Assembly: GCA_020353055.1 (NCBI GenBank)
Contig: CP070686.1
Span: forward strand, 638,965-702,964
DNA from: a candidate division WOR-3 bacterium
GTDB taxonomy: Bacteria > Hydrothermota > Tepidihabitantia > SM23-42
DNA length: 64,000 bases
Reading direction: 5' to 3'
The notes beneath the pieces were generated by a model that did no database searches, was not told where the DNA came from, and worked only from the letters and a program-made list of their open reading frames with translations. Positions 1,559 through 62,752 of this stretch are shown here, in pieces (position 1 is the first letter of the stretch; each line of letters starts with the position of its first letter). The position numbers were made by a program, and so were the translations under genes.

Positions 1559-1655
1559 CGCTAATATCGTTAATATCGTTAATATCGTTATTTTCGTTAT
1601 TATAGTTTCGTGCTCAACTTCTTAATCTCTCATCATCTCAACTTCTGTCTTTATC
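1559..1655 (+). repeat. Intergenic repeat element copy A: 9-bp tandem repeats (GTTAATATC x3 and variants) plus conserved tail TTTCGTGCTCAACTTCTTAATCTC...CAACTTCTGTCTTTATC
   Basis: Read directly from sequence. Three perfect and two degenerate 9-mers are followed by a tail shared with copies B, C and E. It lies in the divergent region between the LTD gene start (1479) and the 1719 gene. Confidence 0.7.
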
Positions 1656-1718
1656 CAGTACATACTTGTCCCCAGCGTTAGCGTTGACACCCGCTAGTGT
1701 GCCGTTATAATCCATCAA

Positions 1719-2105
1719 ATGATAATTTGTTTTCTACTTCTCTTGACTGCTGCTTCGAGGCCACCGGCACAAGACGAACCTGCTGATATCGACTCGCTAA
1801 CCCACGCAGACAGTCTTGTTATCATGCCGGAAATGAGAAAGGCAATATCAGACCCGTGGTTTGGTCAGGATAAATTACTGCACTTCTCCGCTGGTTTTGC
1901 GATTCCAGGAATCACCTATCACTTTTACATAAACAAGCTCAACGGTGAAGAACAAAGGGGCAAAGTATACGCCGTATCCTTGACTGCTCTATTGGCTTTC
2001 GGAAAAGAATTCTATGACAAGAAGAAAAAGGGGCATTTTTCCTGGAAAGATCTTGCCTGGAGTGGTTTGGGACTCGCGGTGGGATACCTCGTACTAATTC
2101 GTTAA
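1719..2105 (+). CDS. Small exported protein, possibly DUF2279/YfiM-like lipoprotein
   Basis: 128 aa with an N-terminal hydrophobic signal (MIICFLLLLTAAS). The motif WFGQDKLLHFSAGF recalls the DKxxHF signature of YfiM-like periplasmic lipoproteins. The family assignment is from memory and is weak. Confidence 0.35.
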   Translation: MIICFLLLLTAASRPPAQDEPADIDSLTHADSLVIMPEMRKAISDPWFGQDKLLHFSAGFAIPGITYHFYINKLNGEEQRGKVYAVSLTALLAFGKEFYDKKKKGHFSWKDLAWSGLGLAVGYLVLIR

Positions 2106-2216
2106 GACCGTTAATTTCGTTACTACCGTTATTCTCGTTAATATCGCTAATACAGCCAATATCATTACTTTCGTTAATATCATTTCGTTTCTCAACTTCT
2201 GAGCTTCTGTCTTATC
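2097..2216 (+). repeat. Intergenic repeat element copy B: about 10 degenerate 9-mers (GTTAATTTC, GTTACTACC, GTTATTCTC, GTTAATATC ...) plus tail CATTTCGTTTCTCAACTTCTGAGCTTCTGTCTTATC
   Basis: Begins at the stop codon of the 1719-2105 gene and ends about 6 nt before the stop codon (2222) of the convergent phosphoglycosyl transferase gene. Same orientation as copy A. Confidence 0.7.
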
Positions 2217-2221
2217 TAATA

Positions 2222-2878
2222 TCAGTCGCAATGAACAGAGAGTTTTCTCCCCCGTTTTTCCCACCGGCCGAGGAAGGTCACAGCCAGGGACAAAAGAATC
2301 AACCGTACATCTGTCAGCAGACTCCTCTTGCTGATGTACATGAGGTCATATTCAAACTTCCTTTCCCTTGGAACATCGCGTGGCATACAGAGCTGCGCTA
2401 TCCCGGTAAGTCCGGGCACAACTGAGATACGCTGTTCGTACCCGGGTATATTCTTCATATTAGACGGAATTGGATTATGGACTTCGACTTCACAGGAGAG
2501 TAAAGGACGAGGCCCAACAAAACTCATATCTCCAAGTAAGATATTTATTAATTGCGGTGATTCATCGATCGCGGTATTGCGAAGGATCTTCCCGACCTTT
2601 GTAATTCTTGTATCGTTTTCGTTTGCCTGAACGTTCACGTGCTCAGTCAGTGAAGAAATGTGCATTGAACGGAACTTGAAAGCATCGAAGTGTTTGCCGT
2701 TACTGCCTATCCTTTCCTGCTTTATAAAAACTGGAGACCCATCTTCGTTAGTGATGACTATCCATAAAATCACCCATACCGGAGCAAGGATGGTCAAACC
2801 AACCAAAGCAAGGATAATATCCATTATCCTCTTGAAAACGTAATATATCAGGAAAGTAACTTTCTTTTTATCATTCAT
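2222..2878 (-). CDS. Polyprenyl-phosphate sugar-1-phosphate transferase (small monotopic phosphoglycosyl transferase, PglC/WbaP C-terminal-domain type)
   Basis: 218 aa. Has an N-terminal hydrophobic helix and the motifs KFRSM, DESPQLINILLGDMSFVGPRP and PGLTGIAQ, which are diagnostic of the bacterial sugar transferase family. Confidence 0.85.
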   Translation of the reverse strand: MNDKKKVTFLIYYVFKRIMDIILALVGLTILAPVWVILWIVITNEDGSPVFIKQERIGSNGKHFDAFKFRSMHISSLTEHVNVQANENDTRITKVGKILRNTAIDESPQLINILLGDMSFVGPRPLLSCEVEVHNPIPSNMKNIPGYEQRISVVPGLTGIAQLCMPRDVPRERKFEYDLMYISKRSLLTDVRLILLSLAVTFLGRWEKRGRKLSVHCD

Positions 2879-3147
2879 CTATTATTACTTATCGCTCCTC
2901 GCGCACGAATATTCGTGCTAAGTCAATAATAAATAATAGATGATATTCCTCCGAAGTCAAGATTTTTCAATTATGAACTTGGGATCAATCAGTAAGTTAG
3001 TGCAGCGAATCATTGCAAAAGAGGTGAGGGCCCCCGGCCCCTGTAAAGCCTATGAGTATGCACGAGGTTTTAGACCGAGAGCCCTCTTATCGAGGAGGTG
3101 CATCTGTATGGCAAGACCCAACTAAATCTCAAAGACCAAAATGTCAG

Positions 3148-5472
3148 TCATCTGACCCAAACTATCTGCTTAACGTCCTGGCAATTATCGACCACCAATC
3201 TACAGAAATATACACCGCTTGCCACCTGTCTGTCAAGAGTGTCTTTTCCATCCCAAACAATGGAGTATTCTCCGGGGTTCTGGGTTTGTTCCACAAGTGA
3301 CCTTACCAGACGTCCGCTCACATCGAAGATACCGATTCTCACGTTACTCGGGGAAGACAACACATAGTCTATATTTGAACGCTGAAATGCAGGATTAGGA
3401 TAAATACAATCCAGACCGCCGGGCTCAATTCTTTGGTGGTCATACAAGAGTCCCAAAGCACCAACGTCTACTTTTTGTGAGATCTCTCCGTATTCGCCCT
3501 GAGTACAGTCGAAACCGCTATAATACATCAGTTGATAAGCGCTATTTCCGCTACGCACATCACTTGAAGTCCAAATGCCATGAAAATACATGTTGTTCTC
3601 GGAGTAGTTCCAAACCGAAGTAGCCTGGCCACTATCAGACTCGAAACCTCCGTTCCGTACACTTCCCCAGAAAAGTGCTATATCATCCCAGTACGTAACA
3701 ATTTCATTAATTCCTTGTGTGTAGTTTTTCTTACAGTATAAGCGGCAAGCAACTGTCACACTATCTTGTCCAATAACATAAGGAGTAACATTGGCAACAA
3801 CGTGCGTCCAACCTTCGCAGAAAGCTATGTCATCTTCCCATACTACATTCCCATTCAAAAGTATCTGTTTGAAGAAAAAACCAGTATCTGCCGAATGGCA
3901 TCTGTCGTTGACCCAAACACTTAGATAAAAACTATCATTCGAAGGTCCGACAACGATAAGCTTGTTTGCACTAGTTGGAATGCCGTCGTTGTCGTGAACT
4001 GTCAGTTCCACATTGTATATGCCGATATCATTGAAAGTATAGGTGACGTTAGGTTTTCGAACAGTATTAGCGTTGTCACCAAAATCCCATTCCCACCATG
4101 ATAGATCACCGTCCGGGTCATAACTACCATTACTGCTAAAAGAGACGTTCAAAGGAACTGTCCCTGAATCAAGATCGACACTTATCTCTGCCACCGGTAT
4201 TCTCGAATTCAATCCGGCGGGAACGGTTGTGCCAAAATGGTTGTCAAATATCCAACAATTAGTATTGCCGGTCCACAGCTTTATCGCCGCCGCGCTATCC
4301 GATGGGTAGAGCCAATTGTTATATATGCTACAGGCTTGGACCGGTAGACCACGGATTCGGATATTTTCACCACCTGTTGTCGTTTGTGTAACCCTTGCAT
4401 ATTTTCGACAGGTATTGTGGTGAATGATGGTCTTTCTTCCGCCATATTCACCCTCGCTCGGCCAGCCGTGACGGTCGAAGTTATGATTAGCACCGTGTTC
4501 AAGACCTATGTTCCACCTTGCCTCCCAGCTCTGCATTGTGTCGCCGGTTGAGGCAATGTTGTGCCGTACGAAATCAAACAGATTGGCTTCCCAAATTCCG
4601 TTCCCCGTACTGCCTGTGCATCCTCCCATGCCCATACAACAATTCTGACCTTCATGAAAATAGTTGTGATGCACGTAGAAACCCCTGGATGTCGCAGAAT
4701 AGATACACGAATGACTCCAGCCCCAAAACTCACAATTGTCTACAACGAGAGAATCATACCAAGCCTGTACCCCATATGATGAGTTGGCCAGAGAAAATGT
4801 GTCGAGAGTAGATTTTCCCTTCCTGTACCAGTAAGGACCCCGGACCCTGAGACCCGTTATGCGAACTCCCTTACCCGACATCATAAGAAAATCCAAACTG
4901 TTGTCGTCAGTATCATCAGTATATAACAACCCACCCCATGATACTGTATCTGCAAGAATACGTCCTCGACCCGAGGCCAAGGTCACATGTCCAGGAATGA
5001 AAACACGTTCCGTGCCTGTCATATTGATTTCAGCGGAATCGGCAACGTAGATAATATCACCAGAGGATGCATTCGCGACCGCATTGAGGAACTCGGCCTT
5101 TGTGCATACGTAGTAATCAGCATCCTGATGTCGAATGCTGTCACTGTAACCCGGTCCACCACCAATTGGATTCCCCGTCGGATTCCATTCAGCACCGATA
5201 TCAGAAAAGCAAATCGATGGTAGTATGAAAACACAAAAAAGAAAAACGGGAATTACTGTAACAGCGAAACCACACCTAAAGTACCGGCCAAGAATATCGG
5301 CCACAGAGTGTTCAAACCAAAACTCCACCTTGGATCTAGAATCGCCCCCTAACATTAGTATATGCAAAAAACGATATTTGTATATAGTTTTGCACATTCT
5401 TAGCCTCCTAGACTTAAGTCTAAATAATATAAAAAAAGACCATACCCCCAAGGGCACATAACCGACCAGCAA
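3148..5472 (-). CDS. Secreted right-handed beta-helix / PKD-domain protein with a Type IX secretion (Por) C-terminal sorting domain
   Basis: Carries parallel beta-helix repeat signatures (NCEFWGWSHSCIYSATSRGFYVHHNYFHEG...) and a PKD-like segment (LNVSFSSNGSYDPDGDLSWWEWDFGDNANT...NVELTVHDNDG). The C-terminal roughly 80 aa (YPNPAFQRSNIDYVL...VSGRLVRSL...GEYSIVWDGKDTLDRQVASGVYFCRL) fit the Por_Secre_tail pattern. The listed start at 5472 is the longest ORF. The true start is probably the downstream M around 5394 or later. Confidence 0.7.
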   Translation of the reverse strand: MLVGYVPLGVWSFFILFRLKSRRLRMCKTIYKYRFLHILMLGGDSRSKVEFWFEHSVADILGRYFRCGFAVTVIPVFLFCVFILPSICFSDIGAEWNPTGNPIGGGPGYSDSIRHQDADYYVCTKAEFLNAVANASSGDIIYVADSAEINMTGTERVFIPGHVTLASGRGRILADTVSWGGLLYTDDTDDNSLDFLMMSGKGVRITGLRVRGPYWYRKGKSTLDTFSLANSSYGVQAWYDSLVVDNCEFWGWSHSCIYSATSRGFYVHHNYFHEGQNCCMGMGGCTGSTGNGIWEANLFDFVRHNIASTGDTMQSWEARWNIGLEHGANHNFDRHGWPSEGEYGGRKTIIHHNTCRKYARVTQTTTGGENIRIRGLPVQACSIYNNWLYPSDSAAAIKLWTGNTNCWIFDNHFGTTVPAGLNSRIPVAEISVDLDSGTVPLNVSFSSNGSYDPDGDLSWWEWDFGDNANTVRKPNVTYTFNDIGIYNVELTVHDNDGIPTSANKLIVVGPSNDSFYLSVWVNDRCHSADTGFFFKQILLNGNVVWEDDIAFCEGWTHVVANVTPYVIGQDSVTVACRLYCKKNYTQGINEIVTYWDDIALFWGSVRNGGFESDSGQATSVWNYSENNMYFHGIWTSSDVRSGNSAYQLMYYSGFDCTQGEYGEISQKVDVGALGLLYDHQRIEPGGLDCIYPNPAFQRSNIDYVLSSPSNVRIGIFDVSGRLVRSLVEQTQNPGEYSIVWDGKDTLDRQVASGVYFCRLVVDNCQDVKQIVWVR
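5409..5422. promoter_or_regulatory. Perfect 14-bp palindrome TAGACTTAAGTCTA, a candidate operator
   Basis: Read directly. It sits in the divergent control region upstream of the beta-helix gene. The motif recurs at 5544-5580 and near 61045 and 61186. Confidence 0.3.
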
Positions 5473-5543
5473 ACCGTAAACCGGTTTGCTGTTGCTCCGC
5501 AGTTTGTTATCTCTGTTTTCAACATAGCATAATCCATTATTTG

Positions 5544-5580
5544 AGACTTAAATATAGATATAATATCTACACTTAAGTCT
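5544..5580. promoter_or_regulatory. 37-nt imperfect palindrome AGACTTAA-N21-TTAAGTCT whose centre (TAGATATAATATCTA) is itself palindromic, a candidate operator or cruciform
   Basis: Read directly. The half-sites are perfect reverse complements and 16 of 21 central positions are self-complementary. It lies between the divergent genes at 5472 (minus) and 5955 (plus). Confidence 0.3.
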
Positions 5581-5653
5581 ATTATATTATAATAAATATA
5601 ACTTTTTTGTCAAGGGGTAAAATGCACTTCTGCCCTATACGTCCGTTGGGTGC

Positions 5654-5746
5654 GTTTAGTTCGTTATTTTCGTTAATCTCGTTACTTTCGTGACTATCGT
5701 TTCGCTTTTTAACTTCTTAATTTCTCATCCTTGACTTCTGTCCTTC
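5654..5746 (+). repeat. Intergenic repeat element copy C: 9-mers GTTTAGTTC GTTATTTTC GTTAATCTC GTTACTTTC GTGACTATC plus tail GTTTCGCTTTTTAACTTCTTAATTTCTCATCCTTGACTTCTGTCCTTC
   Basis: Has the same architecture and orientation as copies A and B. It lies about 200 nt upstream of the 5955 gene. Confidence 0.7.
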
Positions 5747-5954
5747 TAGGTCTACCCGTTTCTTCACGTTAACGTGTCTGAAACGTTGCATATCTTAAGC
5801 AACCCACCGTACGAAACACCTCATTCAATACTAGATCCCCTACCGTTTTCTTTTTCTCAACCTCTCATCCTTTCAATTTCCATTTTTCTGCCGCACCAGG
5901 CTGTTGACATTTAATAGAATATCATTATTATTCACTAGTATTTAAGGAGGAAAG

Positions 5955-6371
5955 ATGTGGGTAGTCGTTCACTTCAAGGATGGTCGCTTGTTGAAAGGAT
6001 TCACGCGCGATTTTACACCAACGAATACAATGTTCCACCTAACCTCTGAGCAGGACAAGGATCGAGGGAGTGAATACGAAATCGACCTCAATGATCTGAA
6101 AGCAATATTCTTCGTCAAAACTCTTGAGGGGAACAAAGACTATGCCGAGAAGAAGAGATTCGAAGAGGTTGACACTTCGGGGCTAAAAGGGCTCAAAATA
6201 AGGGTCGAGTTTGCTGATGGAGAAGTGATCCGGGGAATAAGTCTCGGCTACAGCAAGTCGAGCAAAGGATTCTTTGTCATCCCGGTGGACCCTGAGAGTA
6301 ATAACGAGCGAATTTATGTAAATGCTGACGCACTCCGCGATATCAAGGTAGGAGCGGCAGCTGAAAAATAG
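5955..6371 (+). CDS. Hypothetical protein with two tandem roughly 60-aa repeats
   Basis: Strong SD (TAAGGAGG) sits 6 nt upstream of the ATG. There is an internal duplication (VVHFKDGRLLKGFTRDF...DLKAIFFVK versus IRVEFADGEVIRGISLGY...ADALRDIKVG). No family recognised. Confidence 0.5.
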   Translation: MWVVVHFKDGRLLKGFTRDFTPTNTMFHLTSEQDKDRGSEYEIDLNDLKAIFFVKTLEGNKDYAEKKRFEEVDTSGLKGLKIRVEFADGEVIRGISLGYSKSSKGFFVIPVDPESNNERIYVNADALRDIKVGAAAEK

Positions 6372-6395
6372 TGTAATTCCCTTCCGGAGGTATGA

Positions 6396-8048
6396 ATGTA
6401 TGCAACCATAATATCATTGCTGGTATCATATCTTGCAGGCACTTCCGGTTTCATCAACATACCGACTGCTGATCAATATGAAGCAAGTGGCACCTGGGGT
6501 GTCGGATTTGCCTATTCTGCCACAATGTTTACGGACGACGCCGACATTACCGATGACCTTGAACCGGATCCGGCTGATTTCAACATTTATCTTCGTTATG
6601 GATTCGCGGGTAGAGGCGAAATTGCCGTTTCAATGTACAAACCTAGCGCTTTTGCGCTGAGTTTTTCTTATGTGATAGTTAAACCAGGCAAGGGACCGTC
6701 ACTATTCGTGGGTATTGATCACATAACCTATGCTAAACATATATCGTCTCTGGGCACCGGTGATACCGTTGGTTTTCTCGAGGAAGTCAGATATGTTACA
6801 GAGTCAGGTGGAAGACCGGCAGAGCTGCTATCAGCATACTTAGGAATACAGCAGACTTTCGGTAAGGTCTTCAACGTCGTGATCGGTCTGGGTAGGGGAA
6901 GATTTGTTGGTTACGGTGAACGCAGCCGATACTTCAACACCGACTTTTTCGTTCTGGGCGACGAGTATAAGGTCGAAGAACATTCTCCCTGGGCATTTGG
7001 ATTATTTTTCGGCGCATCACTGCGTTTTCCGTTCGGCCTTGAATTGATGGGTGAAATGGACGGACGTGATGCAAGTATCGGTATCAAATACCATAATAAA
7101 TATATCACGCCCACAATAGCACTGACAAAAGTTGAGCAATTCGGTGACCGCCGGCCTTTCTCACCGCGCATTGCGGTCGGCATTGAAGCCACCAACCGTT
7201 TTATGCTCGATAAACCCGAGTTCGGCACAATTGAATGTGTAATTCATGATAACACGAGCAAAGAATTACTGGTAAATTCAACCGTCGAGATAGTAGAGTT
7301 GAACAAGCAGTATACTGCAACCGGTGGAACATTCTCCCTGAATCTACCAGCTGGAAATTACACGATCGTCGTTGCACGAACCGACTATGTAGACTACAGA
7401 GCAAAGATCAATGTCAAGTCGAATGTGCGCAGCAAACTGGTATTTAACATGCACAAGACCGAAGAAGCCCTCCGCTTGGAACAGGCAGCAAAAGACAGGG
7501 AAGCCAGCATACGGAATCATCTGGAACAGGGCAAGATATATTTTTCAGAAGGTAACCTTGAACAAGCTAAAGCGGCATTTGAAATGGTTCTTTCACTCGA
7601 TCCCGGAAATGTCGAAGCACAGGAATCGCTCGGCGCTCTCGAACTTAGACGTGCAAACCTCATTGCATACTATACTTCAGAAGCAACGAAGCAGACCCAG
7701 GCAAAAAGCTATACGCAGGCGATTCAATCCTGGCAAAAAGTACTGTCACTTGATCCCAACAATACCGAAGCAAAGAACGCGGTCGCAGAGCTACGTAAAC
7801 TAACGGCTGCACCTTCAAAACCACCTGCCAAGCCGTCAAAACCATCCACACCTGCTAAACCCAGAGTGAGTGAAGCCGAGATTGAGAACCTGTACAAAAG
7901 AGGAGTATCGTTATTCACCAGCGAGAAATACGATGAGGCGCTCAACGCTTTCAAACGTGTACTCGCGCTGAACCCAAATCATGTAGGCGCAAAGGAATAT
8001 AAGAGACGAACCGAAGCAAGACTGAGAGTTCTGAGGGGAAGTGGCTAA
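6396..8048 (+). CDS. Exported protein: N-terminal beta-rich region, carboxypeptidase-regulatory-like beta-sandwich, Pro/Lys-rich linker and C-terminal TPR repeats
   Basis: Signal-like N-terminus. The segment YTATGGTFSLNLPAGNYTIVVARTDYVDYRAKINV is CarbopepD_reg-like. The linker is PSKPPAKPSKPSTPAKP. At least three TPR-like units follow (AKAAFEMVLSLDPGNVEAQ, YTQAIQSWQKVLSLDPNNTEAK, ALNAFKRVLALNPNHVGAK). Confidence 0.55.
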   Translation: MYATIISLLVSYLAGTSGFINIPTADQYEASGTWGVGFAYSATMFTDDADITDDLEPDPADFNIYLRYGFAGRGEIAVSMYKPSAFALSFSYVIVKPGKGPSLFVGIDHITYAKHISSLGTGDTVGFLEEVRYVTESGGRPAELLSAYLGIQQTFGKVFNVVIGLGRGRFVGYGERSRYFNTDFFVLGDEYKVEEHSPWAFGLFFGASLRFPFGLELMGEMDGRDASIGIKYHNKYITPTIALTKVEQFGDRRPFSPRIAVGIEATNRFMLDKPEFGTIECVIHDNTSKELLVNSTVEIVELNKQYTATGGTFSLNLPAGNYTIVVARTDYVDYRAKINVKSNVRSKLVFNMHKTEEALRLEQAAKDREASIRNHLEQGKIYFSEGNLEQAKAAFEMVLSLDPGNVEAQESLGALELRRANLIAYYTSEATKQTQAKSYTQAIQSWQKVLSLDPNNTEAKNAVAELRKLTAAPSKPPAKPSKPSTPAKPRVSEAEIENLYKRGVSLFTSEKYDEALNAFKRVLALNPNHVGAKEYKRRTEARLRVLRGSG

Positions 8049-8084
8049 AATAGACTAACCGAAACAGAACTTTTTCTCAAAGAA

Positions 8085-8120
8085 AGAGGCCCCCGTGAAC
8101 GGGGGCCTCTTCTTCAAATT
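8085..8120. terminator. Bidirectional Rho-independent terminator
   Basis: 10-bp GC-rich stem AGAGGCCCCC / GGGGGCCTCT with loop GTGAAC. The stem is flanked by TCTTCAAATT on the plus strand and CTTTCTTTGAG on the minus strand. It lies between the convergent ends of the 6396-8048 gene and the last gene (8179) of the large minus-strand locus. Confidence 0.65.
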
Positions 8121-8178
8121 AAAAAACGCAACGCTGTTAGAATAATTGTATCGTTGGCTACTGACTGCAGTACGTGCC

Positions 8179-9243: not shown

Positions 9244-9248
9244 TGTGC

Positions 9249-11081
9249 TTAACTGTACCTTTCTGATAGATTATTCAACCACAATTCCAGATTGATCCAT
9301 TTCCAAATATCACGGGAAATATTGATCTTCCTTCGTAAATGCAGGTCATAGAGTTTGAGACACTTCCGGTAATCAACATATGGGCTTAGCCGAAAGGACG
9401 CTGAATGCATTATATCCATCACGTAAGTCTGAAAAACACTTTCTCTAAACCATTCATCTTCAGGTGTCATGAAACCAACTTTATCTTGGCGCCTAAGGAT
9501 CTCTTGAGGAACAATTTCTTGCATTGCTCTGCGTAGGATTGATTTGTTCTCACCAGCGTGAATGATCTCATTCGGGTTCAAGGCCAGCACACCCTCAACT
9601 ATCCTGTGATCCAAAAGCGGTACTCTCGATTCCAGTGAATACCACATTGAGTTTCTATCCTCCCATTTCAACAAGTGCTCCAGTTTGTATTCAAAATGAT
9701 TCAGCAGTGCATCGCGCAGTGAAGATGCATCAAATAATGTTGCGGCCAACCGAGTATTCCCAGCTTCTCGCTCGTAGAAACTCGGGTTCAGATAATTCCG
9801 GCCAACAAGTTTGGCACGTGATTTCACTGCATTGGGTAGAAGAAAATACAACAATGATTTAAAAGCATACAAAGATCGGTGCTTTCGGAAATAATGATAG
9901 ACTTCCTTCAAGAAGGTCAGTAAATGCATGTATGTCAGAAGTTCTCGATAGTAATTACCGAAGAAATAATGGTAACCACCGAGTATTTCATCTCCGCCCT
10001 GCCCATCCAAAAGGACTTTCACAGTTCCTCTGGCCAGTTGCATTACTTTAAACTGAGCATAGGGCCCCGTCGTAGCAACAGGTTCCTGTTGACAAGACAC
10101 GAACATATCCAGATCATCAAGAAGTGTGCGTACGGTCGGTGTGACCTTATGCATCCTGAAAACAGAATTGTCGAAGAGATCTATGTATTCTCCTTCATCA
10201 CCTACAACACCGGCACCGTACACGGCTGAAAAAGTATGCAAATCGTTCTTCTCAAGTATTCTTGTCATGATCGCTACGATACTCGAAGAATCCAGTCCCC
10301 CACTCAAACATACACCCACAGGCACGTCACTACGTAAGTGTATTCTGACCGAATCCGCAAGAAGATCTTTGAAATCCTTTGAAGACTTCAAAGTCGGCCT
10401 GATTTCTTCAGGTAATTTGTACCACCGGTGAAACTCAACATTGTGTCTGCTGACCTTTGCGTATTGACCATGCCCCAAACGCTTCACGCCGCTATAGAAG
10501 GTGTCATCGTATTGATCCGTACGATTATAGACCAAGTAATCGAAAATGACCGTATCGTTCGCCCCATACAAAGACGGAATCGTCTGCAGTACACCTTTAA
10601 TCTCAGATGCAAATACAAAAGTCGCATTATCACAATAATAATAAAGAGGCTTTATGCCAAATCGGTCGCGAACAAGAAATAACTCCCCTGTCTCGGTATC
10701 GTATATGGCAAATGCAAACATCCCGATGAATTTCTTTAAACATTCGATACCCCATTCAATAAATGAATAAAGCACTACCTCGGTATCAGTCCTTGAAACG
10801 AAGCGATACTTGCTATCCAATTCATTTCGCAATTCAAGATAATTATAAATCTCTCCATTGTGAATGATGCAGTAACGATTACTCTGATCAAACATTGGCT
10901 GCCGTCCTGCGGAAGTTAGATCGATAATACTCAATCTCATATGACCAAGCCCAACATTTTTATCGAGGTATAATCCTTCATCATCCGGCCCGCGATGTTT
11001 AACAGCAGACATCATGCGCTTTATTTGACTACTTTCAACTTTCTCCTGATTAAATGAATACATCCCTACTAAGCCGCACAT
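9249..11081 (-). CDS. Asparagine synthetase (glutamine-hydrolysing) family amidotransferase, WbpS-like
   Basis: Has the MCGLVG N-terminus (Cys2 nucleophile of class-II glutamine amidotransferases) and the PP-loop CLSGGLDSS, over about 610 aa. The ORF track extends to 11090 (MLDM...). The likely start is the Met-Cys at 11081. Confidence 0.8.
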   Translation of the reverse strand: MCGLVGMYSFNQEKVESSQIKRMMSAVKHRGPDDEGLYLDKNVGLGHMRLSIIDLTSAGRQPMFDQSNRYCIIHNGEIYNYLELRNELDSKYRFVSRTDTEVVLYSFIEWGIECLKKFIGMFAFAIYDTETGELFLVRDRFGIKPLYYYCDNATFVFASEIKGVLQTIPSLYGANDTVIFDYLVYNRTDQYDDTFYSGVKRLGHGQYAKVSRHNVEFHRWYKLPEEIRPTLKSSKDFKDLLADSVRIHLRSDVPVGVCLSGGLDSSSIVAIMTRILEKNDLHTFSAVYGAGVVGDEGEYIDLFDNSVFRMHKVTPTVRTLLDDLDMFVSCQQEPVATTGPYAQFKVMQLARGTVKVLLDGQGGDEILGGYHYFFGNYYRELLTYMHLLTFLKEVYHYFRKHRSLYAFKSLLYFLLPNAVKSRAKLVGRNYLNPSFYEREAGNTRLAATLFDASSLRDALLNHFEYKLEHLLKWEDRNSMWYSLESRVPLLDHRIVEGVLALNPNEIIHAGENKSILRRAMQEIVPQEILRRQDKVGFMTPEDEWFRESVFQTYVMDIMHSASFRLSPYVDYRKCLKLYDLHLRRKINISRDIWKWINLELWLNNLSERYS

Positions 11082-11082
11082 A

Positions 11083-12204: not shown

Positions 12205-12256
12205 TTTTTCATCTGAATCATGCTATGACGATAATATTCTCGCTTACCACTCGATG

Positions 12257-15294: not shown

Positions 15295-15334
15295 TACCTT
15301 GATCTCTTACTACATTGTTCTACCAACGCACATG

Positions 15335-52844: not shown

Positions 52845-52869
52845 ATCAGGTTGATCAGAACAACATTCA

Positions 52870-53976: not shown

Positions 53977-54002
53977 GCATCAAGTCACCCGAAATATTCT
54001 TA

Positions 54003-54950: not shown

Positions 54951-55053
54951 ACAAGATCCTAATACTGACTTACTTTTTAGCTTTGATAAAGCAATCTCAC
55001 AGAAGATGTCGCCTTACTGGAGATCCCCAGACCAAATCACCCGGTGCCGTAAT

Positions 55054-56736
55054 CTACTTGATCTCTACAACTCGCTCTTCCTGCTTTGTATACCTGCGCG
55101 AACATTTTCGGCACACCGCGCCATTGTCGCCAAATGTCAATTTGTTCCCGCATTCGCACACCCAGCCGATGTGCTTAGCCGGTACCCCAGCCACGATCGC
55201 ATAGTCGGGAACATTATGTTTGACCACTGCTCCGGCACCAACAAGAGCACAGCGGCCAATCGTAACTCCACAGATGATCGTCGAATTAGCCCCGATCGAT
55301 GCTCCCTCTTTGACAAGTGTTGGAACCCATTTACCGAATTCCGGGTAGAGCCGCTTCGGGTATCTGGCGCGCGGGTTGATATCATTGGTAAACGCCGCTG
55401 ACGGGCCGACAAATACATAGTCTTCCAATGTTACTAAATCCCAGACATCTATGTTGGATTCAAGTTTCACCCCATTTCCCAGACGTGCCTTCGAACCAAC
55501 AAAACAGTTGTGCCCGATTATGCAGTTCTCACCGATTTGAGCTCCGGCTTGAACCTGCGCGTTATTCCATATCTTACTTCCTCGGCCGATCCTCGCCTTA
55601 TCAGCAACAATAGCGGTCGGATGTACAGAAACGTCTTCGCGCAGCGCTCGAGCGCTTTTCTTCGTATCGAACGTGACTTTGAGACCATTGTTGTTAAGCG
55701 AATTCTGTGCACTATAGAGAAACGTAAGCACGTTCAACCCTTCTTGGCCATCGGTATAAGGAGTCCATCCGTTCTCTATACACTCGATGAAATGCTGGCA
55801 TTCCAGTCTCAACGGCTCCTCCATCTGGACTGGAACAACCTCGGCATCCGCCTTGCGTGCTATCGGAGCGCGGTTTTGCCATTCGATCTTGTGTGGGTAC
55901 AGGAAGAGTTTCTCGGTTGTCAGGTCATCAAACACCGCCATTTTACGATCGCCGACTACGACCAGTTTCTGCTCTTTATACGGATGCAACCATGAGACAA
56001 ATATATGGCACTGCACACCGCTCGGAAAATCCATCGTCGTAAGAGTGACGTCAGCGATCCCTTTCTGAACATACGTGCCGCCGATGGCAGACAGCGAACT
56101 CGGTTGCTCGTTGAGTAGATAAAGAATCACCGAAATATCATGTGGGGCAAAACTCCAGAGTATATTCTCAGCATCCCTAATCTTACCGATATTCAACCGG
56201 TTTGAATAGATATACTGTATCTTGCCCAGTTCACCATTATCGACTAGTTCCTTCAGTTTATTCATCGCCGGATGGTACCGCAGAACGTGCCCGACCATTA
56301 TCACACGCTCGTTATCCTCGGCCAGTTTAATAAGCTCTTCAGCCTCCTCGACCTTCAACGCAAGAGGCTTCTCGACAAACAGATGCCGCTTGGCAGCGAG
56401 CACTTTCTTCGACAATTCGTAATGGCTCTTTGCTGGTGTTGCTACAACCACGCCATTGATCTCCGGGTCATTCAGAATATCATCAAGCGATTCTGTGCAA
56501 TTAATGTTAGGATAAGTGACCCTGCACGACCTCACGCTACTCGAATTGACATCGCAAACGGCTCTTAAGACACCAAGTTGGGCAAAATTGCGTACTAGAT
56601 TCTTACCCCAGCCGCCCATACCTACGACACCGATGCGCGCTGGCGTGCGCTGATCCAAAGTCGCATATTGTGCGCTGCTTTCACGTATCGTGTGTTCTAC
56701 ATTCTCCGCCATATTGACACCCCCTAATCCCTTCAA
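55054..56736 (-). CDS. Bifunctional Gfo/Idh/MocA oxidoreductase (WbpB-like) fused to hexapeptide N-acetyltransferase (WbpD-like) with C-terminal CxC...CxxC zinc-ribbon tail
   Basis: N-terminal half: [18 protein letters not shown] and FVEKPLAL. C-terminal half: hexapeptide repeats [40 protein letters not shown]. Tail [24 protein letters not shown]. Confidence 0.75.
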
Positions 56737-56836
56737 ATTTCACATATGATTATTATATAATGTACACAAGTCCCCTTTCAACGAGAAAACATTATCTGGG
56801 TTTCTCATTGCAAGTATACAATGAAACATATACATA

Positions 56837-57955
56837 TCAGTTGTTATAAAATTCTCTGACACATTTGATTACGTACTCGACTTCAGTATCCGTTAGATCC
56901 TGCTGAATGGGCAATGAAAGGACTTCGGCTGCGGCCTTTTCCGCGATTGGAAAGTCACCTACTTTGTAGCCGAGATACTTAAACGCTGGTTGCACATGTA
57001 AGGGAACCGGATAATGAATTGCAGTTGCTATGCCTTTCTCATTGAGATATTTTGCCAACTCATCCCGTCTTGCTGCTCTGATCGTATACTGGTGGTATAC
57101 GGATTCATTATCTTCCCTAATAAAGGGCGTGGCCACAACATCTCTCAGGGCATCGTCATATTTCTTGGCAATACGGCGCCTTTGTGCGTTCCAGTTGTCG
57201 AGATACTTCAATTTTATTCTGAGAAATGCTGCCTGCATTGCGTCAAGGCGGTCATTATGCCCCAAAAAATCATGGTGATATTTCTTAGACGCTCCGTGAA
57301 CACGGTAAGCCCTGATCTTAGTAGCAAGATTCCCATCATTGGTCAGGATCATGCCGGCATCTCCGAGCGCATTGAGATTCTTGGTAACATAGAAACTGAT
57401 ACAAGCAGTATCGCCGAAATTACCAACCATTTGTCCATTGTATTTTGCACCAATGGCCTGCGCCATATCTTCGATCACCTTCAGTCTGTGATCCTGAGCA
57501 ACACGCATTATCCTCGTCATATCAGCTGCCTGGCCGTATAGATGGACCGGCATAATAGCCCTGGTACGGGCTGAAACACATTCCTTTATGCTGCCTGCGT
57601 CGATATTGAATGTTTTCCGATCAATATCACAGAAAACAGGTTTGGCACCGACCAGAGCGATAACCTCTGCCGTCGCCACGAAAGTAAACGGAGTCGTTAT
57701 GACCTCATCGCCCGGTCCGATACCCAACGCCCTCAGTGATAGCAGGAGAGCATTAGTGCAATTCGACACACCTATTGCGTGTTTGGTTTTGGCATATGAA
57801 GCTATCTCTTCTTCGAATTTCCTCACCTCATCACTGAGAATGAATTTATTGCTATCCAAGACTCTCTCAAACGCTTGCATCAAGTCATTCTTTATAGGTT
57901 TGTGCTGCCGTTCAAGATCTATGAATGGAACCTTCATGAACCTCCTTTCAACCAT
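56837..57955 (-). CDS. DegT-family aminotransferase (WbpE-like UDP-2-acetamido-3-oxo-uronate aminotransferase)
   Basis: MKVPFIDLERQHKPIKNDLMQAFERVLDSNKFILSDEV...VSNCTNALLLSL. Confidence 0.8.
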   Translation of the reverse strand: MVERRFMKVPFIDLERQHKPIKNDLMQAFERVLDSNKFILSDEVRKFEEEIASYAKTKHAIGVSNCTNALLLSLRALGIGPGDEVITTPFTFVATAEVIALVGAKPVFCDIDRKTFNIDAGSIKECVSARTRAIMPVHLYGQAADMTRIMRVAQDHRLKVIEDMAQAIGAKYNGQMVGNFGDTACISFYVTKNLNALGDAGMILTNDGNLATKIRAYRVHGASKKYHHDFLGHNDRLDAMQAAFLRIKLKYLDNWNAQRRRIAKKYDDALRDVVATPFIREDNESVYHQYTIRAARRDELAKYLNEKGIATAIHYPVPLHVQPAFKYLGYKVGDFPIAEKAAAEVLSLPIQQDLTDTEVEYVIKCVREFYNN

Positions 57956-58180
57956 CCTCTAATATATTCCTTAGAAACATCATCAAATCACACAACCCTA
58001 AGGCAACATTCAATGCCTCATCTCAAGAACACCCTGGCTCTATCAAGGATGTCTGGACAGGCTACCGCCCTTGTCAGACGCGGACAATTCAGGTTGTACG
58101 GCGGCGAAAATGTACTTCGCACAGCCATCGTCCGTTTTCTGACCACCTGAGGCATGATAGAAGAGCCTTAAGTGTATCAT

Positions 58181-58228
58181 TATGCTAAAAGAAAAGTTAT
58201 CAGCGGTCACCAAAACATTTTGACCGCT
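58181..58228 (-). terminator. Candidate intrinsic terminator/attenuator between wzc and the downstream biosynthetic genes
   Basis: Stem AGCGGTCA/TGACCGCT (8 bp, 58202-58209 and 58221-58228) with an 11-nt loop. On the minus strand it is followed 7 nt later by CUUUUCUUUU. It lies in the 310-nt gap between wzc (stop 58267) and the DegT gene (start 57955). Confidence 0.35.
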
Positions 58229-58266
58229 ATCAGATATCTATCAAAAGAGCAATGACCCATTTCCCT

Positions 58267-60891
58267 TCAACCGGTTTTGTAATACTTTGAATAGTGCCTA
58301 TAATAATTATCGTAGTAGTAGCTTCCCCTCTCTTTGGGAGCGCCATTCAACACTACACCGAGAATATCGGACTTTGCACTGATCAATATATTATTGGCAA
58401 CATCAAGCGTGTTCAACGTCGTCCTACCGTACCTTGCGGTGAGGATCACGCCGTCCGCAAACGTAGCGAGATAACTGGCATCTGCAAACAGAAGCAATGG
58501 GACACCGTCAATTATTATGTAATCATACTCCTTTCTTAAACTGGCCACCAACTTCTTCATGGCCTCTGACTCAAGAAACACAAAGGGGTTTGGAGGGACT
58601 TTACCAAGAGGCAAAAGGTCAATTTTAGATTTGCTTTCTCTTGCCGCACTCCTGTGACCGGAGCCAAACGGCAACGTCACATCCTGGGGTTCAACTGAGC
58701 CCATCAGGATATCGAACAAGCCGAGTTCCTTTTTTAACTTAGTCACTGCGGTAAGATGCCCCGATGTTTTTCTGAAATCGGTATCGATCATCAAAATGCT
58801 CTTACCCATGCTGCCGATTACCTGACCGAGGTTAAGCGCAACAAATGTCTTACCTTCTTCGGGACCAGCCGAGGTCACGTACAAAACCCTGTACTTCTTG
58901 TAGGGATGGATAAAATCGAGACTGACTGCCAGTTTCCGAAATGATTCAAACTCTGGCGAGGAGATATCCGTACGCAGCAACTTGAGAGGCTCAGGGTGAT
59001 TCGCATTCATCTTGTTCCGCCTTACCCTCCTCCACAACGCCATCAACCCTGTTTCATTGAGCATATGTTCAAACTCGCTAATCTTCTTCTCATCGCCGAT
59101 CAAAGGAATCGTTTCAAGCAGGATTATACCCAATCTATTCGTTATTTTATCAGGGTCCTTGATGGTATTATCAAGGTAATCGGCCGCCAAAACAGCCAGC
59201 GCGCCTCCGAACGCAGCAATTGCCATGGCAAAGATGACACCTCTGATCCTGCCCCGCCCATTGACTGGTGAAGATGACACCATCGGGGGATTAATGATCT
59301 TCAAATCAGATGTCACACCCGCTTCCTGAACCCGTGTTTCTTGCAATCTTTCGGACAAAGTCAGGTATGTTTTCTCGGCCGTTTCTCGGTCCCGCTCAAG
59401 CCTGGCAAGACTGACCTCTTCAAGTGGCACGTTATCGAGTCTCGCCTGCAGAATCCTGATCTGACGATTATAACCATCTATCTCTGATCCTACGGCAGAG
59501 GTACGTTTGAGAACTTCTTCATTAAGTAGTTCTACAAGACCGTCCAATCTCGCCTGTATTTCCCTTACTTTTGGATGATTCGATGAATATTCCCTTAACT
59601 TTCCTTTGAGTTCGGCTTCTGTCTGCAGAAGATCAGAATACAATGCTCGTAGAGATACATCGGAAAGCATCGTCATCCCAAAATCCGGTATGGTATCACC
59701 AAAAGCCGCAGGATTAGCTAAATAGCCGATAAGGTCCTGCATCACTTTCTGTTCGATCTCAAGCAGGCTCTTTCTCGACTGTAGTTCTGACACCTGTGAT
59801 ATCAATTCCTGCGTTGAAGCCTCAAGGTTTGATATAGACTTACGCTCTTTAAATCTCCTGACCTGTTCTTCCAGGTCGGTAAGTAGGTTCTTACTAATAA
59901 TCAGTTGGGAGTCGATAAAAGCCTTCGATTGAGTGAATTGCTGTGATTTCTCCTCCCGGTTCTCCATAAGTAACTGTTCTGAAAGGGAATTGGCTATGCG
60001 GAGCGCGTCCTGGGGGTTCCCCCAGTGCACATCAATCCTCAGGATACCAATTAGATTCATCCCGGGAAATATAGACTTTGCTACAACAGGAGGGTCAGAA
60101 GCACCTTCACCAGAAAAGGGTATGTTTGAGCCGGAAAAACCATCGTCAATTTTGTCCGCATCAAGCACCTTTATCGACAGAGAATTTCTCAAGGCCAATG
60201 CTAAACTCTCCTTCGGATATATCATGAGCCGGTAGTGCTTGTTCAACGGCTTCCCGTGTACTGATGTAATTCTCAATTCACAGATGCCCGCATCGATATA
60301 CTCATCAAGCAAACCCTCGGCGATTTTCTCATCGCCGTTGAATACCGTAATTAAACCGTAGACACTATCCTCTGCCCGACTGCCGTCCCTATAAATAGAC
60401 ACCGGGACATCGTCTATCACAAGCCTCAGAGGTCCAAATGGCTCGGATATTCTCTTTTTCATGATGGCATCGACCCTCAAATCTGAACCGCCATCATCGA
60501 CATAAGTAAACAGGGATAGATCCTCGATAACCTTCTCAGCAAGATTAACGCTTAGAAGACTCGTTATAGCCCGTTGTGTAACCGAGCCAATAACTGTAGG
60601 CAACTCCGCACCGCCAGGTCCGGGAAAAACAGCATCCAAAGGTTTTTCATTTACAACACCCACGTCAAATGTAGCGCGGAAAATTGGACTGTATGATCTT
60701 AGAAAGCTGTTGACTGCGAACCACAGGAAAACCGGCACGAAAATATAAAGAAACAGCCGCTTCCTTCTAAGGAATTTATTGACTACCTCATGAATATCTA
60801 ACGGCTTTTCCTCGGGCTCGCCATAGGTAAGATTAGTATCTCCCTTCTTCTGCAACCGCCTGTTTATATAACTGCTCATCAACCTCCCCAT
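58267..60891 (-). CDS. wzc: Polysaccharide co-polymerase / BY-kinase (Wzc-like chain-length determinant fused to tyrosine kinase)
   Basis: 874 aa. The N-terminal Wzz-like region has a TM helix and coiled coils. Walker A VTSAGPEEGKT, A' ILMIDTDFRKT, Walker B YIIIDGVPLL. C-terminal Tyr cluster ERGSYYYDNYYRHYSKYY. Confidence 0.85.
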   Translation of the reverse strand: MGRLMSSYINRRLQKKGDTNLTYGEPEEKPLDIHEVVNKFLRRKRLFLYIFVPVFLWFAVNSFLRSYSPIFRATFDVGVVNEKPLDAVFPGPGGAELPTVIGSVTQRAITSLLSVNLAEKVIEDLSLFTYVDDGGSDLRVDAIMKKRISEPFGPLRLVIDDVPVSIYRDGSRAEDSVYGLITVFNGDEKIAEGLLDEYIDAGICELRITSVHGKPLNKHYRLMIYPKESLALALRNSLSIKVLDADKIDDGFSGSNIPFSGEGASDPPVVAKSIFPGMNLIGILRIDVHWGNPQDALRIANSLSEQLLMENREEKSQQFTQSKAFIDSQLIISKNLLTDLEEQVRRFKERKSISNLEASTQELISQVSELQSRKSLLEIEQKVMQDLIGYLANPAAFGDTIPDFGMTMLSDVSLRALYSDLLQTEAELKGKLREYSSNHPKVREIQARLDGLVELLNEEVLKRTSAVGSEIDGYNRQIRILQARLDNVPLEEVSLARLERDRETAEKTYLTLSERLQETRVQEAGVTSDLKIINPPMVSSSPVNGRGRIRGVIFAMAIAAFGGALAVLAADYLDNTIKDPDKITNRLGIILLETIPLIGDEKKISEFEHMLNETGLMALWRRVRRNKMNANHPEPLKLLRTDISSPEFESFRKLAVSLDFIHPYKKYRVLYVTSAGPEEGKTFVALNLGQVIGSMGKSILMIDTDFRKTSGHLTAVTKLKKELGLFDILMGSVEPQDVTLPFGSGHRSAARESKSKIDLLPLGKVPPNPFVFLESEAMKKLVASLRKEYDYIIIDGVPLLLFADASYLATFADGVILTARYGRTTLNTLDVANNILISAKSDILGVVLNGAPKERGSYYYDNYYRHYSKYYKTG

Positions 60892-61499
60892 ACCAACACA
60901 TACATAGCCATAGACACCCCGTTATGGCCATCTCAGATACATAGCTTTCACTAGTCCTGTTGGGCGACAGACTCAAATGAAGAGCTACTATACTTAATTC
61001 TCGCTATATTATAACCAAAAAAAGCGTCTTGTCAACCCCCAAAATGAAACTTAAACTTAAGTCATTGATGTCGCGCAAAGTGTTGTTAGCACTATCGCTG
61101 ATGAACATATCTCAAAAAACTACCTAATAGTAGGGACCTTCAACCTGTTCCCGTTGGCAAAAAAAAATAGAGTCGTTTTGACGAGACTTAAATGGCGAAA
61201 AACCAGCAATTAGGAAAGTGAGAAGATGAGCCAAGACCCCCTGTCATTCTCCGGTTTATCCGGGGAATCCAGACTGGCACTTGACGCTCTACGCTAGACG
61301 CATCATGCCCGAATAGGCTTGTCATTGCGAGGAGCGACGCGACGAAGCAATCTCCGTTGGTCGGCGTAGGTTGTAATATCACCCTTGGTTTCTGTAGTAT
61401 ATATAGGAATGAACATTATGATCCTGGTATCACGCTACAGCACCTGTGATCCTGCGATCGCTAGTCAATTGTACTTGAAAGTTACATATAACGTATTTC

Positions 61500-61808
61500 A
61501 TGGAGGTACTACACAGTAGCATGGATGATACACTGAGGGTGTTCAAAGCAGTAGCTAACGAGAAGAGATTAGATATGATCAAGTTACTGGCGGAAAAAGG
61601 AAAATTGAGTTTAAGGGAAGTCGCTTTTCTCATGGATATTCCTGAAGCGACGGCTTGCCGTAATCTGAAGATACTCGAGAATGCGGGGATCGTTAAAAGC
61701 ACGATCATCCGTGCCATTGCCCAATACTGGTTGGACCGGGACATGACCGAATTGCCGAACGGAATGGTGGTCGGAATCGTACTGAATGGATTAACTCAAA
61801 AACGTTAA
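61500..61808 (+). CDS. ArsR/SmtB-like winged-helix transcriptional regulator
   Basis: LRVFKAVANEKRLDMIKLLAEKGKLSLREVAFLMDIPEATACRNLKILENAGIV fits the HTH_20 pattern. An SD-like GGAGGT at 61502 suggests the real start may be the second ATG at 61521. It is divergent from the large minus-strand locus. Confidence 0.55.
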   Translation: MEVLHSSMDDTLRVFKAVANEKRLDMIKLLAEKGKLSLREVAFLMDIPEATACRNLKILENAGIVKSTIIRAIAQYWLDRDMTELPNGMVVGIVLNGLTQKR

Positions 61809-61850
61809 TATCGTTTAGATCGCTATTATCGTTAATAACGTTGATTTACA
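61803..61850 (+). repeat. Intergenic repeat element copy D (truncated: 9-mers GTTAATATC GTTTAGATC GCTATTATC GTTAATAAC GTTGATTTA only)
   Basis: Starts at the stop codon of the regulator gene, as copy B does with its upstream gene. It lacks the conserved tail. Confidence 0.55.
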
Positions 61851-62053
61851 TTTCCAATTGCGACTATGACAAATTGATAGGAAGTAGTATATTCAAAAAC
61901 AGGATATCAGCAGGACGACTATCAGCTTTTAGTATACCAAATCATGGTCGAGCCAAGCTGATCCCCCATAGTCAATCCTGCTGATATCCTCCTTATCTTA
62001 TCAGCGAAGCATGTCATCAGGAGCAAAGCGACATGACTCCAGTCACAGGCGTG

Positions 62054-62251
62054 TTATCTGTCTTTAAGTTGGATTGAATGCTGGACGCCGCCATGCGCCC
62101 AATTCTCCTTCCGCACTTCGCGGATGATGATGTGAACCGCTTCTTTGGGACAATCAACGACCTCAACAATAGTATCGGTAACCCTGGAAATCAGAATCTC
62201 CTTCTTCTTGGCGTCAAATCCAGCCCAAAGATTAATCTCTATGTGTGGCAT
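62054..62251 (-). CDS. Tautomerase-family enzyme (4-oxalocrotonate tautomerase-like)
   Basis: 65 aa. N-terminal MPHIEINLWAG (catalytic Pro1) and the length match 4-OT family members. Confidence 0.7.
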   Translation of the reverse strand: MPHIEINLWAGFDAKKKEILISRVTDTIVEVVDCPKEAVHIIIREVRKENWAHGGVQHSIQLKDR

Positions 62252-62650
62252 ATTCTCTCCTTTCTTAGCCTGTTACCCTCTTGATACCTCATCTCCTTTG
62301 ATTCTCCGAGCTCTGTGTCTCCCCTCTCGGTAATCAATAGTATAATACGTTCACTCCGCTATCTTAACATGACGTGGTGCAGCCTGTCAATGGAGGAATA
62401 TATGATTACTATGATTTCACCTGATAGACGGGTTAAGTGCAATCCGCCTCAGGTAGGCGTGTCTCCGACCGCTTTTTGGTATTGGACTATTAATTTGTGT
62501 GAATTCTGAAAGGAAAGTCTCTACTGAATTAATGAAGGAAACTGTTGATCTACGATACTGGCGCGTATCAACTCAGCACCTGTTTGATAAATTAGGGTTA
62601 GTTAGAGCATACCTCTACAGATTCACTTCTTCGCAAAACCGAGTGCAGCA

Positions 62651-62752
62651 CTTTCTTTACTTTTTGAGCTCTATTTCTTTACAGTTCTTTACGTTACTCA
62701 GCTTCTTAATTTCAAAACATCTGATTTTCTTTCTTGAGATGCTTCTGTCCTC
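62651..62752 (+). repeat. Intergenic repeat element copy E (diverged 9-mers CTTTCTTTA CTTTTTGAG CTCTATTTC ... plus tail CAGCTTCTTAATTTC-N35-GCTTCTGTCCTC)
   Basis: The tail shares the ACTTCTTAA and CTTCTGTCC boxes with copies A-C. The element ends exactly at the stop codon of wecB (62752), as copy B does with the gene at 2222. Confidence 0.55.

Follow-up and report, generated by a model that had tools for sequence, protein, structure and literature searches.

The 64,000-nt stretch of contig CP070686.1 (assembly GCA_020353055.1) analysed here, hereafter the window, derives from a candidate division WOR-3 bacterium and is taken up mostly by a 53-kb polysaccharide operon on the minus strand (8179-60891), with few true intergenic regions, located at both ends of the operon. 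These regions hold the subject of this study, a family of interspersed repeats in which a full copy has as its 5′ module a run of 5-17 direct repeats of 9 bp, unspaced and with a conserved core (consensus T-n-T-CGTTA-n), and continues through a conserved junction (TATC(G/A)TTTCG) into a pyrimidine-rich tail built of CTCAAC(T/C)TCT-like units. Longer versions in relatives carry extra modules: a GC-rich one, a G/T-rich one (TTAGGATTTG) and a second tail. Whole spacers between genes are filled by the copies: one end abuts a stop codon or the edge of a promoter, and the other reaches the signal that comes next.

Four strict 9-bp arrays of CGTTAnTnT were found in the window, all on the plus strand. 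Tandem Repeats Finder (TRF) called period-9 repeats at 1562-1607, 2095-2181, 5660-5701 and 61803-61842, and its only other period-9 row in the window, 19 nt with two copies at 22155-22173, is not comparable. When a position weight matrix (PWM) derived from 28 units was summed over four consecutive units, scores of 42-50 were reached at exactly four sites in the window, on the plus strand only, against a runner-up of 7 on either strand and a maximum of 17 across 30 shuffles. Information in the matrix is high at C1, G2, T3 and T4, intermediate at A5, T7 and T9, and low at positions 6 and 8. TRF and PWM together bear out the strict 9-nt register described in a preliminary description of this DNA. 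Array A (1541-1603) comprises seven unspaced units (CGTGAATTC CGTTAGTCC CGCTAATAT CGTTAATAT twice, CGTTATTTT CGTTATTAT) and array C (5644-5697) six; both begin earlier than first described, A by two units (1541 rather than 1559) and C at 5644 rather than 5654. Array B (2100-2180) holds nine units in strict register and array D (61803-61847) five, without a tail.

In A, B and C the array leads through a junction, TAT(A/C)(G/A)TTTCG, into the tail. Junction and tail together span 1604-1655 in A (AGTTTCGTG CTCAACTTCTTAATCTCTCATCATCTCAACTTCTGTCTTTATCC; nhmmer E=1e-13), 2181-2216 in B, where the tail is short (CATTTCGTTTCTCAACTTCTGAGCTTCTGTCTTATC), and 5698-5746 in C (CGTTTCGCTTTTTAACTTCTTAATTTCTCATCCTTGACTTCTGTCCT; nhmmer E=3e-14), all on the plus strand. 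The pattern TTTCG-N5-6-AACTTCTKA-N1-30-CTTCTGTC matches only these three copies, with zero matches expected, in agreement with the conserved tail reported earlier. Element C probably includes a second pyrimidine module on the plus strand (5850-5881, CTTTTTCTCAACCTCTCATCCTTTCAATTTCC), immediately upstream of the promoter of the DUF6982 protein gene (5955-6371) and weakly similar to a long element in the relative L228 (BLAST E=0.046; L numbers denote loci outside the window). The DUF6982 protein itself groups the organism with relatives of candidate division WOR-3. Of the five copies originally listed, the claim stands for arrays A to D and fails for copy E (62689-62751, plus strand), a diverged tail alone (CTTCTTAATTTC ... 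CTTCTGTCCT) without a CGTTA array. Copy E has only one 12-mer and one 10-mer in common with tail C and is recovered at E=0.054 by an nhmmer profile built from tails A, B and C, which makes it a marginal, decayed family member. The assertion that all copies are co-oriented likewise holds for those listed and not for the genome: L121, a Logan contig of the same genome extending 6.7 kb left of the window, has a decayed minus-oriented array at 2381-2232, directly after an HHH_3 gene and ~6 kb left of the window. A possible relic of a minus-oriented tail at 61190-61240, purine-rich on the plus strand, upstream of the exopolysaccharide operon promoter and recognised by alignment only, also weighs against uniform orientation.

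Element A sits between divergent sigma-70 promoters that lie outside the repeat, that of an LTD-domain gene on the minus strand (1489-1516; TTGACT-N16-TATAAT), with its -35 box 24 bp from the array, and that of gene 1719-2105 on the plus strand (1684-1711; TTGACA-N16-TATAAT), with its -35 box 28 bp past the tail. A 30-bp gap separates the start of array C from the -35 box of the minus-strand promoter 5613-5586, upstream of which it lies; this promoter is one of three further near-perfect sigma-70 promoters with 16-bp spacers (the others at 5904-5931, plus strand, and 61035-61008, minus strand). Promoters flanking A and C agree with the sigma-70 consensus in 11-12 of 12 positions, confirming their placement in divergent promoter regions, and the ribosome-binding sites of the flanking genes are AGGAGG. 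A Bacteroidetes-type -7 box, suspected earlier in copies A to C, is not how this organism starts transcription, given these near-perfect TTGACA-N16-TATAAT promoters; the junction is also off by one from TAnnTTTG. Copy B forms the whole 116-bp spacer between convergent stop codons: the TAA of its first unit (2103-2105) is the stop of gene 1719-2105 and its tail ends 6 nt short of the stop codon of the minus-strand gene 2222-2878. Array D begins in the same way in the stop codon (61806-61808) of an ArsR-like gene (61500-61808); in both B and D the gene before the array is thus closed by a TAA that the first unit contributes (CGT-TAA). Copy E ends 2 nt before the stop of the epimerase gene (62752), and the early observations on copies starting or ending at stop codons therefore all stand. 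At spacers without the repeat this genome uses hairpin terminators, as seen from a bidirectional intrinsic terminator at 8088-8112 (GAGGCCCCCG-TGAA-CGGGGGCCTC, with A and T tracts) between a TPR gene and the last gene of the operon; a second hairpin terminator lies at ~3027-3041.

The same sites are occupied in relatives, in altered form. At site C, L145 has an array of 8-9 units, L148 one of 14 units with a REP-like (repetitive extragenic palindromic) hairpin inserted before the tail, and L230 an array. At site D, L219-221 carry five units, again beginning in the stop codon. Sites A and B are filled in L227, L228 and L230 with other unit numbers, split arrays and extra modules, element B measuring 116 bp in the window vs ~210-390 bp in these three, and the HHH_3 site of L227 and L228 bears a full array and tail in minus orientation. 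The stretch preceding the operon promoter holds an array and tail in minus orientation in L216, a long tail array in L219, and in the window only the purine-rich relic and a REP-like hairpin. Unit numbers and modules therefore turn over by insertion or loss at orthologous sites. Site C is empty in L152 and site D in L216, a closer relative than L219-221; both empty sites are rearranged or too diverged to define the edges of the element. Across four relatives the C spacer is alignable only at promoters and operators.

Beyond orthologous sites, the profile of tails A, B and C detects L145 at E=4e-4 and, at an unrelated locus on the WOR-3 chromosome CP070802.1 (L098), a further match at E=2e-3; L098 holds three arrays in 8 kb, one of them with a tail. 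No copies were present within 40 kb in two more distant WOR-3 genomes. A genome scan with the pattern CGTTA-N4 x4 gave at least 120 loci in many phyla, a set that says nothing on over-representation of the core, as the pattern itself demands CGTTA; only L098, L109 and L118, all WOR-3, belong to the family, and none of the scanned loci outside WOR-3 matched the tail profile. On these comparisons the family appears specific to one WOR-3 sublineage, within which it is probably abundant genome-wide, because ~7/10 spacers >100 bp are occupied by our tally over the window and L121. The proposal of a novel miniature repeat family is upheld by the recurrence of one junction and tail in WOR-3 relatives, both at orthologous sites and elsewhere, and the tail, whose loss there had been named as the mark of a chance low-complexity region, is conserved. 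Two further searches were set aside: the tail pattern had 22 matches in a metagenome collection that does not include the source organism, none with an upstream array, which we attribute to chance, and matches in a viral scan were mostly perfect coding repeats of giant viruses, irrelevant here. As a separate observation, degenerate nonamer arrays with a CGTTA core form multi-copy intergenic families in several unrelated lineages (L001-L120 scan): ACGTTAnnA x4-5 in Firestonebacteria (L013, L019, L031, L043, L103), frequently located after a hairpin terminator and ahead of the following start codon; ATCCGTTAC xN followed by GCCGAACTTCCTTCTTCC in Oscillatoriales (Microcoleus L001, L014, L016); and GGCGTTAGA-type units in Bacteroidales (Alistipes L010, L078, L100).

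Comparison of orthologous arrays unit by unit (C in the window and L145, D in the window and L219) yielded 21 differences, none of them on C1 or G2 (P about 0.005 under uniformity); the others comprise T-to-C exchanges at position 3 and unrestricted change at positions 5-9. Even across mutated units the 9-bp register holds. In the genome to which L228 and L145 belong (same JGI sample), copies at A, B, C and the HHH_3 site score 118-180 of 220 among themselves vs 43-59 against their orthologues in the genome of the window. Because the L228/L145 copies are more alike mutually than to these orthologues, they indicate concerted evolution, either through gene conversion among dispersed copies or through repeated insertion into occupied sites. 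L228 copies B and H (the HHH_3 site) are ~95% identical over ~330 bp, a stretch that takes in the GC-rich and G/T-rich modules and the second tail. The long elements of L228, at 3440-3930 (minus) and 10388-10770, lie in two different convergent spacers and have the module order array, tail, GC-rich, G/T-rich TTAGGATTTG and second pyrimidine tail; their near-identity in separate spacers points to recent conversion or transposition. Tandem ‘array-spacer-array’ arrangements in L227, L228 and L230 are compatible with conversion and re-insertion alike.

Several classes of sequence can be set aside. Protein-coding tripeptide repeats are ruled out, as there is neither a continuous open frame nor third-position variation: only a 33-aa open reading frame (ORF) traverses A, TAA is present in one frame of each strand, and variation at positions 5, 6 and 8 shows no codon periodicity. 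A search of the entire window against Rfam at gathering thresholds returned nothing, nor did one of 1400-6000 at E<=1. On either strand the minimum free energy cannot be told apart from that of shuffles (z -1.6 to +1.3), inverted repeats >=9 nt are missing from A, B, C and E, whether terminal or internal, and the 64-kb window holds no transposase, including none of the REP-associated tyrosine (RAYT, Y1) type; the earlier statement that no ORF, transposase, terminal inverted repeat or REP-type hairpin accompanies the copies thus survives closer inspection. BLAST against plasmid and phage collections gave no match, and the copies come with neither a promoter nor a terminator of their own; promoter-like matches within the arrays reach 9/12. 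A small RNA family, as had been suggested, is not supported, in view of the Rfam and folding results, of the missing promoter and terminator and of the occurrence of both orientations relative to co-directional genes. The units are contiguous, without the spacers of a CRISPR array. Adenine-specific variation of the kind made by diversity-generating retroelements, considered as positions 5, 6 and 8 are A in the consensus, was rejected because T7 and T9 vary too and a reverse transcriptase is missing. G-poor tracts were also discarded as a signature, being unspecific on a plus strand that is G-poor throughout, and a possible resemblance to the H-NS-like motif tCG(t/a)T(a/t)AATT was set aside.

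By analogy, the family seems to behave like BOX, STRR (short tandemly repeated repetitive sequence) or BIME-type (bacterial interspersed mosaic element) interspersed repeats. BOX elements of Streptococcus pneumoniae have the order boxA-boxB(n)-boxC, with complementary ends, a stable fold and a 45-bp unit. The WOR-3 copies resemble them in being ~100-400 nt long, non-coding, dispersed between genes and without a transposase of their own, and in having conserved modules that flank a variable tandem unit (here 5-17 units with the same junction and tail, and extra modules in L228 and L230); they differ in having neither inverted repeats nor a fold, and a unit of 9 bp rather than 45 bp. The terminal inverted repeats of miniature inverted-repeat transposable elements (MITEs), or of non-autonomous DDE transposons, are likewise missing. 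Enterobacterial REP/BIME sequences are imperfect palindromes mobilised by RAYT transposases; they have in common with our family a dense presence in intergenic spacers and at convergent gene ends, a proposed role as sites for nucleoid or topology proteins, and concerted evolution, whereas the WOR-3 copies have no palindrome and no RAYT gene in the window. Cyanobacterial STRRs are near-perfect heptamer tandem arrays found in many intergenic regions of heterocystous cyanobacteria, with function unknown. Here too short-unit arrays are scattered through the intergenic regions of one lineage, but each unit is a degenerate nonamer built around a conserved core, the arrays run on into a conserved junction and tail, and the phylum is another; CGTTA-containing nonamer arrays did appear in the genome scan as multi-copy families in Microcoleus, Tychonema and Calothrix. 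The family accordingly shows the structural hallmarks neither of MITEs, REPs and BOX (inverted repeat, hairpin) nor of STRRs (heptamers, cyanobacteria).

Two further likenesses concern protein binding. Iterons are also direct repeats that serve as protein-binding sites, but they are 17-22 bp long, usually phased with the helical repeat and placed beside a rep gene at an origin, and our copies match no plasmid or phage. Omega heptads, 8-bp MetJ metboxes and ParG sites are arrays bound by ribbon-helix-helix (RHH)-type proteins. The WOR-3 arrays share their sequence architecture, namely unspaced, modestly conserved direct repeats with a period of 7-9 bp in 5-10 units (5-9 per array in the window), which lends itself to cooperative head-to-tail binding, and not their genomic context: the known arrays are single-copy and lie beside par or regulator genes, whereas the WOR-3 copies are many and dispersed, with no cognate gene nearby and no RHH, ParA/ParB or Rep match in the Pfam scan of all flanking genes.

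Our preferred reading, to which we would give a probability of about 40%, is an interspersed repeat of modular build in which the array would serve as a platform for protein binding. In the literature on 9-bp intergenic tandem repeats and STRRs, the only useful precedent was the pCXC100 centromere: an RHH ParB binds its nine 9-bp direct repeats, which are unspaced and modestly conserved, in cooperative fashion and gives hydroxyl-radical protection with a 9-bp period (PMC3074162). This centromere answers the earlier remark that a 9-bp register is unusual for binding sites. By this model the nonamer array would support cooperative sequence-specific binding, one protomer or dimer per 9 bp, of the type known from RHH centromere/operator proteins, and the bound array could constitute a nucleoprotein block between transcription units, acting as insulator, topological barrier or recombination scaffold. 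We favour it because a strict 9-bp register is maintained through mutated units, together with a conserved CGTT(A) core and 5-17 units; the arrays also persist where the intergenic DNA around them aligns at promoters and operators only. The earlier notion of binding-site arrays is plausible in view of the CG core, which never changes between orthologous units, and of the unspaced 9-bp precedent. Several findings tell against such a platform. No binding protein was found, and no RHH, par or rep gene lies beside the copies. Between orthologues the spacing of array and nearest -35 box ranges over ~24-51 bp, and unit number is free, from 5 to 17, both a poor fit to a precisely phased regulatory site. 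The other modules are simple tandem repeats as well, which fits slippage-prone selfish DNA equally, and homogenisation over ~330 bp is expected of a mobile or converting selfish repeat with no need of a host function. In addition, a chi-square test for non-uniform change over the nine positions was not significant (p=0.25), and unit pairing in the orthologous comparison was chosen by similarity.

Close behind the binding platform ranks repeat DNA that is purely selfish or mutational, non-autonomously mobile or gene-converting and slippage-prone, without host function and surviving only where harmless, between stop codons and promoters, an explanation we regard as possible, if rather unlikely. 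It would account naturally for modules made of three kinds of short tandem repeat, a free unit number, frequent insertion and loss of modules at one site (as in the length range of element B), homogenisation within a genome, restriction to a sublineage with none in 40 kb of two other WOR-3 genomes, and copy ends that coincide exactly with flanking stop codons. It accords less well with the lack of terminal inverted repeats, of visible target-site duplications and of a transposase in 64 kb, with persistence at orthologous sites down to ~73-81% neighbour protein identity amid scrambled intergenic surroundings, or with the retention of the CGTT core and 9-bp register while positions 5-9 drift. 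Far less probable is an operator function, in which the arrays would be bound by the adjacent ArsR-like winged-helix regulator (61500-61808) or by another locus regulator of the surface-polysaccharide region. Array D adjoins the ArsR-like gene, a cluster of copies sits at each end of the 53-kb operon and an array with tail lies between the ArsR and operon promoters in L216; however, this clustering merely reflects where the window has intergenic DNA, L216 lacks array D despite an ArsR protein 96% identical, and the promoters of the operon and of the gene for a type IX secretion system (T9SS) protein carry another conserved palindrome, ACTTAAGTC, placed as an operator. Copies moreover adjoin unrelated genes (HHH_3 and beta-lactamase; IVP genes and an oxidoreductase-like gene in L118; three L098 sites). 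The putative binding protein would therefore not be the neighbouring ArsR-like regulator, and the suggested ties both to this regulator and to polysaccharide loci, given the copies flanking HHH_3, beta-lactamase and IVP genes, are not supported.

An action at the RNA level, as a hairpin-less factor-dependent (Rho-type) terminator or 3′-UTR module, or with the junction TAT(A/C)(G/A)T as a -10 box from which a tail transcript would start, seems improbable to us. Arrays B, D and those at the HHH_3 site do start 0-15 nt past a co-oriented stop codon where no hairpin terminator exists, and gene ends with hairpin terminators (8088-8112, 3027-3041) have no arrays, but in convergent and divergent spacers the rule that an array follows a co-oriented gene is geometrically forced, and we rejected it as uninformative. 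Where genes are co-directional, orientation is mixed: in L118, where three consecutive genes appear to form one operon, one of the arrays between them is sense and the following one antisense, 9-11 nt ahead of a start codon; copy E runs antisense to the genes on either side; and an array in L152 (849-823) is in the sense of its upstream gene. The plus-strand transcript would be U-rich and unstructured, and with C at 0.21-0.23 against G at 0.10-0.17 the copies have the composition of a rut site (~80 nt unstructured, C > G). Rut sites, however, lie in sense orientation downstream of the terminated gene, unlike copy E and the L118 arrays in both senses, and described examples have regularly spaced C residues ~12 nt apart, which counts against this reading as the array period is 9. 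As for initiation, TTAATA-N16-TATAGT (A) and TTAATA-N16-TATCAT (B) occur at the junctions, but such 9/12 matches are no better than many random ones, and real promoters here reach 11-12/12; Rfam adds no match. The lack of structure and the mixed orientation in co-directional spacers argue for a DNA-level role or none, and any action of the element would, we infer, be exerted by double-stranded DNA and not by RNA.

In cultured bacteria, transcription, mRNA fate, genome plasticity and typing schemes are all influenced by interspersed repeats, REP, BOX, Correia and STRR among them, about which hardly anything is known in uncultivated phyla. The present family is found in most true intergenic spacers around the 53-kb polysaccharide operon, provides two gene stop codons and changes fast between close relatives, and on these grounds affects gene-end annotation, assembly and binning of metagenome-assembled genomes, and possibly regulation. 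Should the arrays prove to be platforms for protein binding, a new nucleoid or insulator factor would be implied; should they be selfish, the family would represent a kind of bacterial repeat without hairpin or inverted repeat. A bolder extension of the platform model, which we consider a long shot, is that the arrays are loading platforms for an abundant DNA-binding protein, not yet recognised, that polymerises at a 9-bp register over most intergenic spacers. Such a polymer could amount to a repeat-encoded chromatin, insulator or topological-barrier system, and the CGTTA-core nonamer families of Firestonebacteria, Oscillatoriales and Bacteroidales would then embody the same principle across phyla.

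Two other features recur next to family modules. Genes for 23S-rRNA-IVP / Avd-like four-helix-bundle proteins (PF05635) occur in L216 (10496-10843), in place of array D and flanked by inverted tail-like sequence, and in L118 (2086-2457 and 2516-2941, minus), where one array lies between the two genes and another, oppositely oriented, after them; a link to the family was dropped after an iterated HMM found no IVP gene at any other array-bearing locus. The REP-like hairpin element (GTCATTGCGAGGAGCGACGCGACGAAGCAATCTC and variants) is present in the window at 61321-61354, at the place where L216 carries an array, and in L148 (~2492-2530) and L098 (~7270-7180, minus); in the relatives it is inserted right at the 3′ end of nonamer arrays, which may be preferred landing sites for it.

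The remaining observations concern neighbouring genes. The promoter at 1684-1711 ends 7 nt before the ATG of gene 1719-2105, and the mRNA of this gene is therefore probably leaderless or nearly so; that of the LTD-domain gene (1516-1489) ends 9 nt before the ATG at 1479. Between the ArsR-like and tautomerase genes lies a perfect 15-nt inverted repeat, AGGATATCAGCAGGA / TCCTGCTGATATCCT (61901-61915 and 61976-61990, 60 nt apart), one arm of which is kept in L219 and which could be a terminator or operator. The listed TTG start at 5472 of ORF 3148-5472, a 774-aa protein with PKD domain and T9SS tail, is probably too far upstream; orthologues have 697-735 aa, and a GACTTAAGTC site at 5411-5420 falls within the supposed N-terminus. 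The palindrome (G/C/A)ACTTAAGTC is found at 5570-5579, 5411-5420 and 61054-61063, just downstream of the -10 box in the minus-strand promoters of the T9SS-protein gene and the 53-kb polysaccharide operon, and AGACTTAA...TTAAGTCT form an inverted pair at 5544-5580. The ACTTAAGTC motif is invariant across the alignments of relatives. It probably serves both promoters as an operator and, as a candidate target of the ArsR-like regulator, is to be preferred to the arrays.

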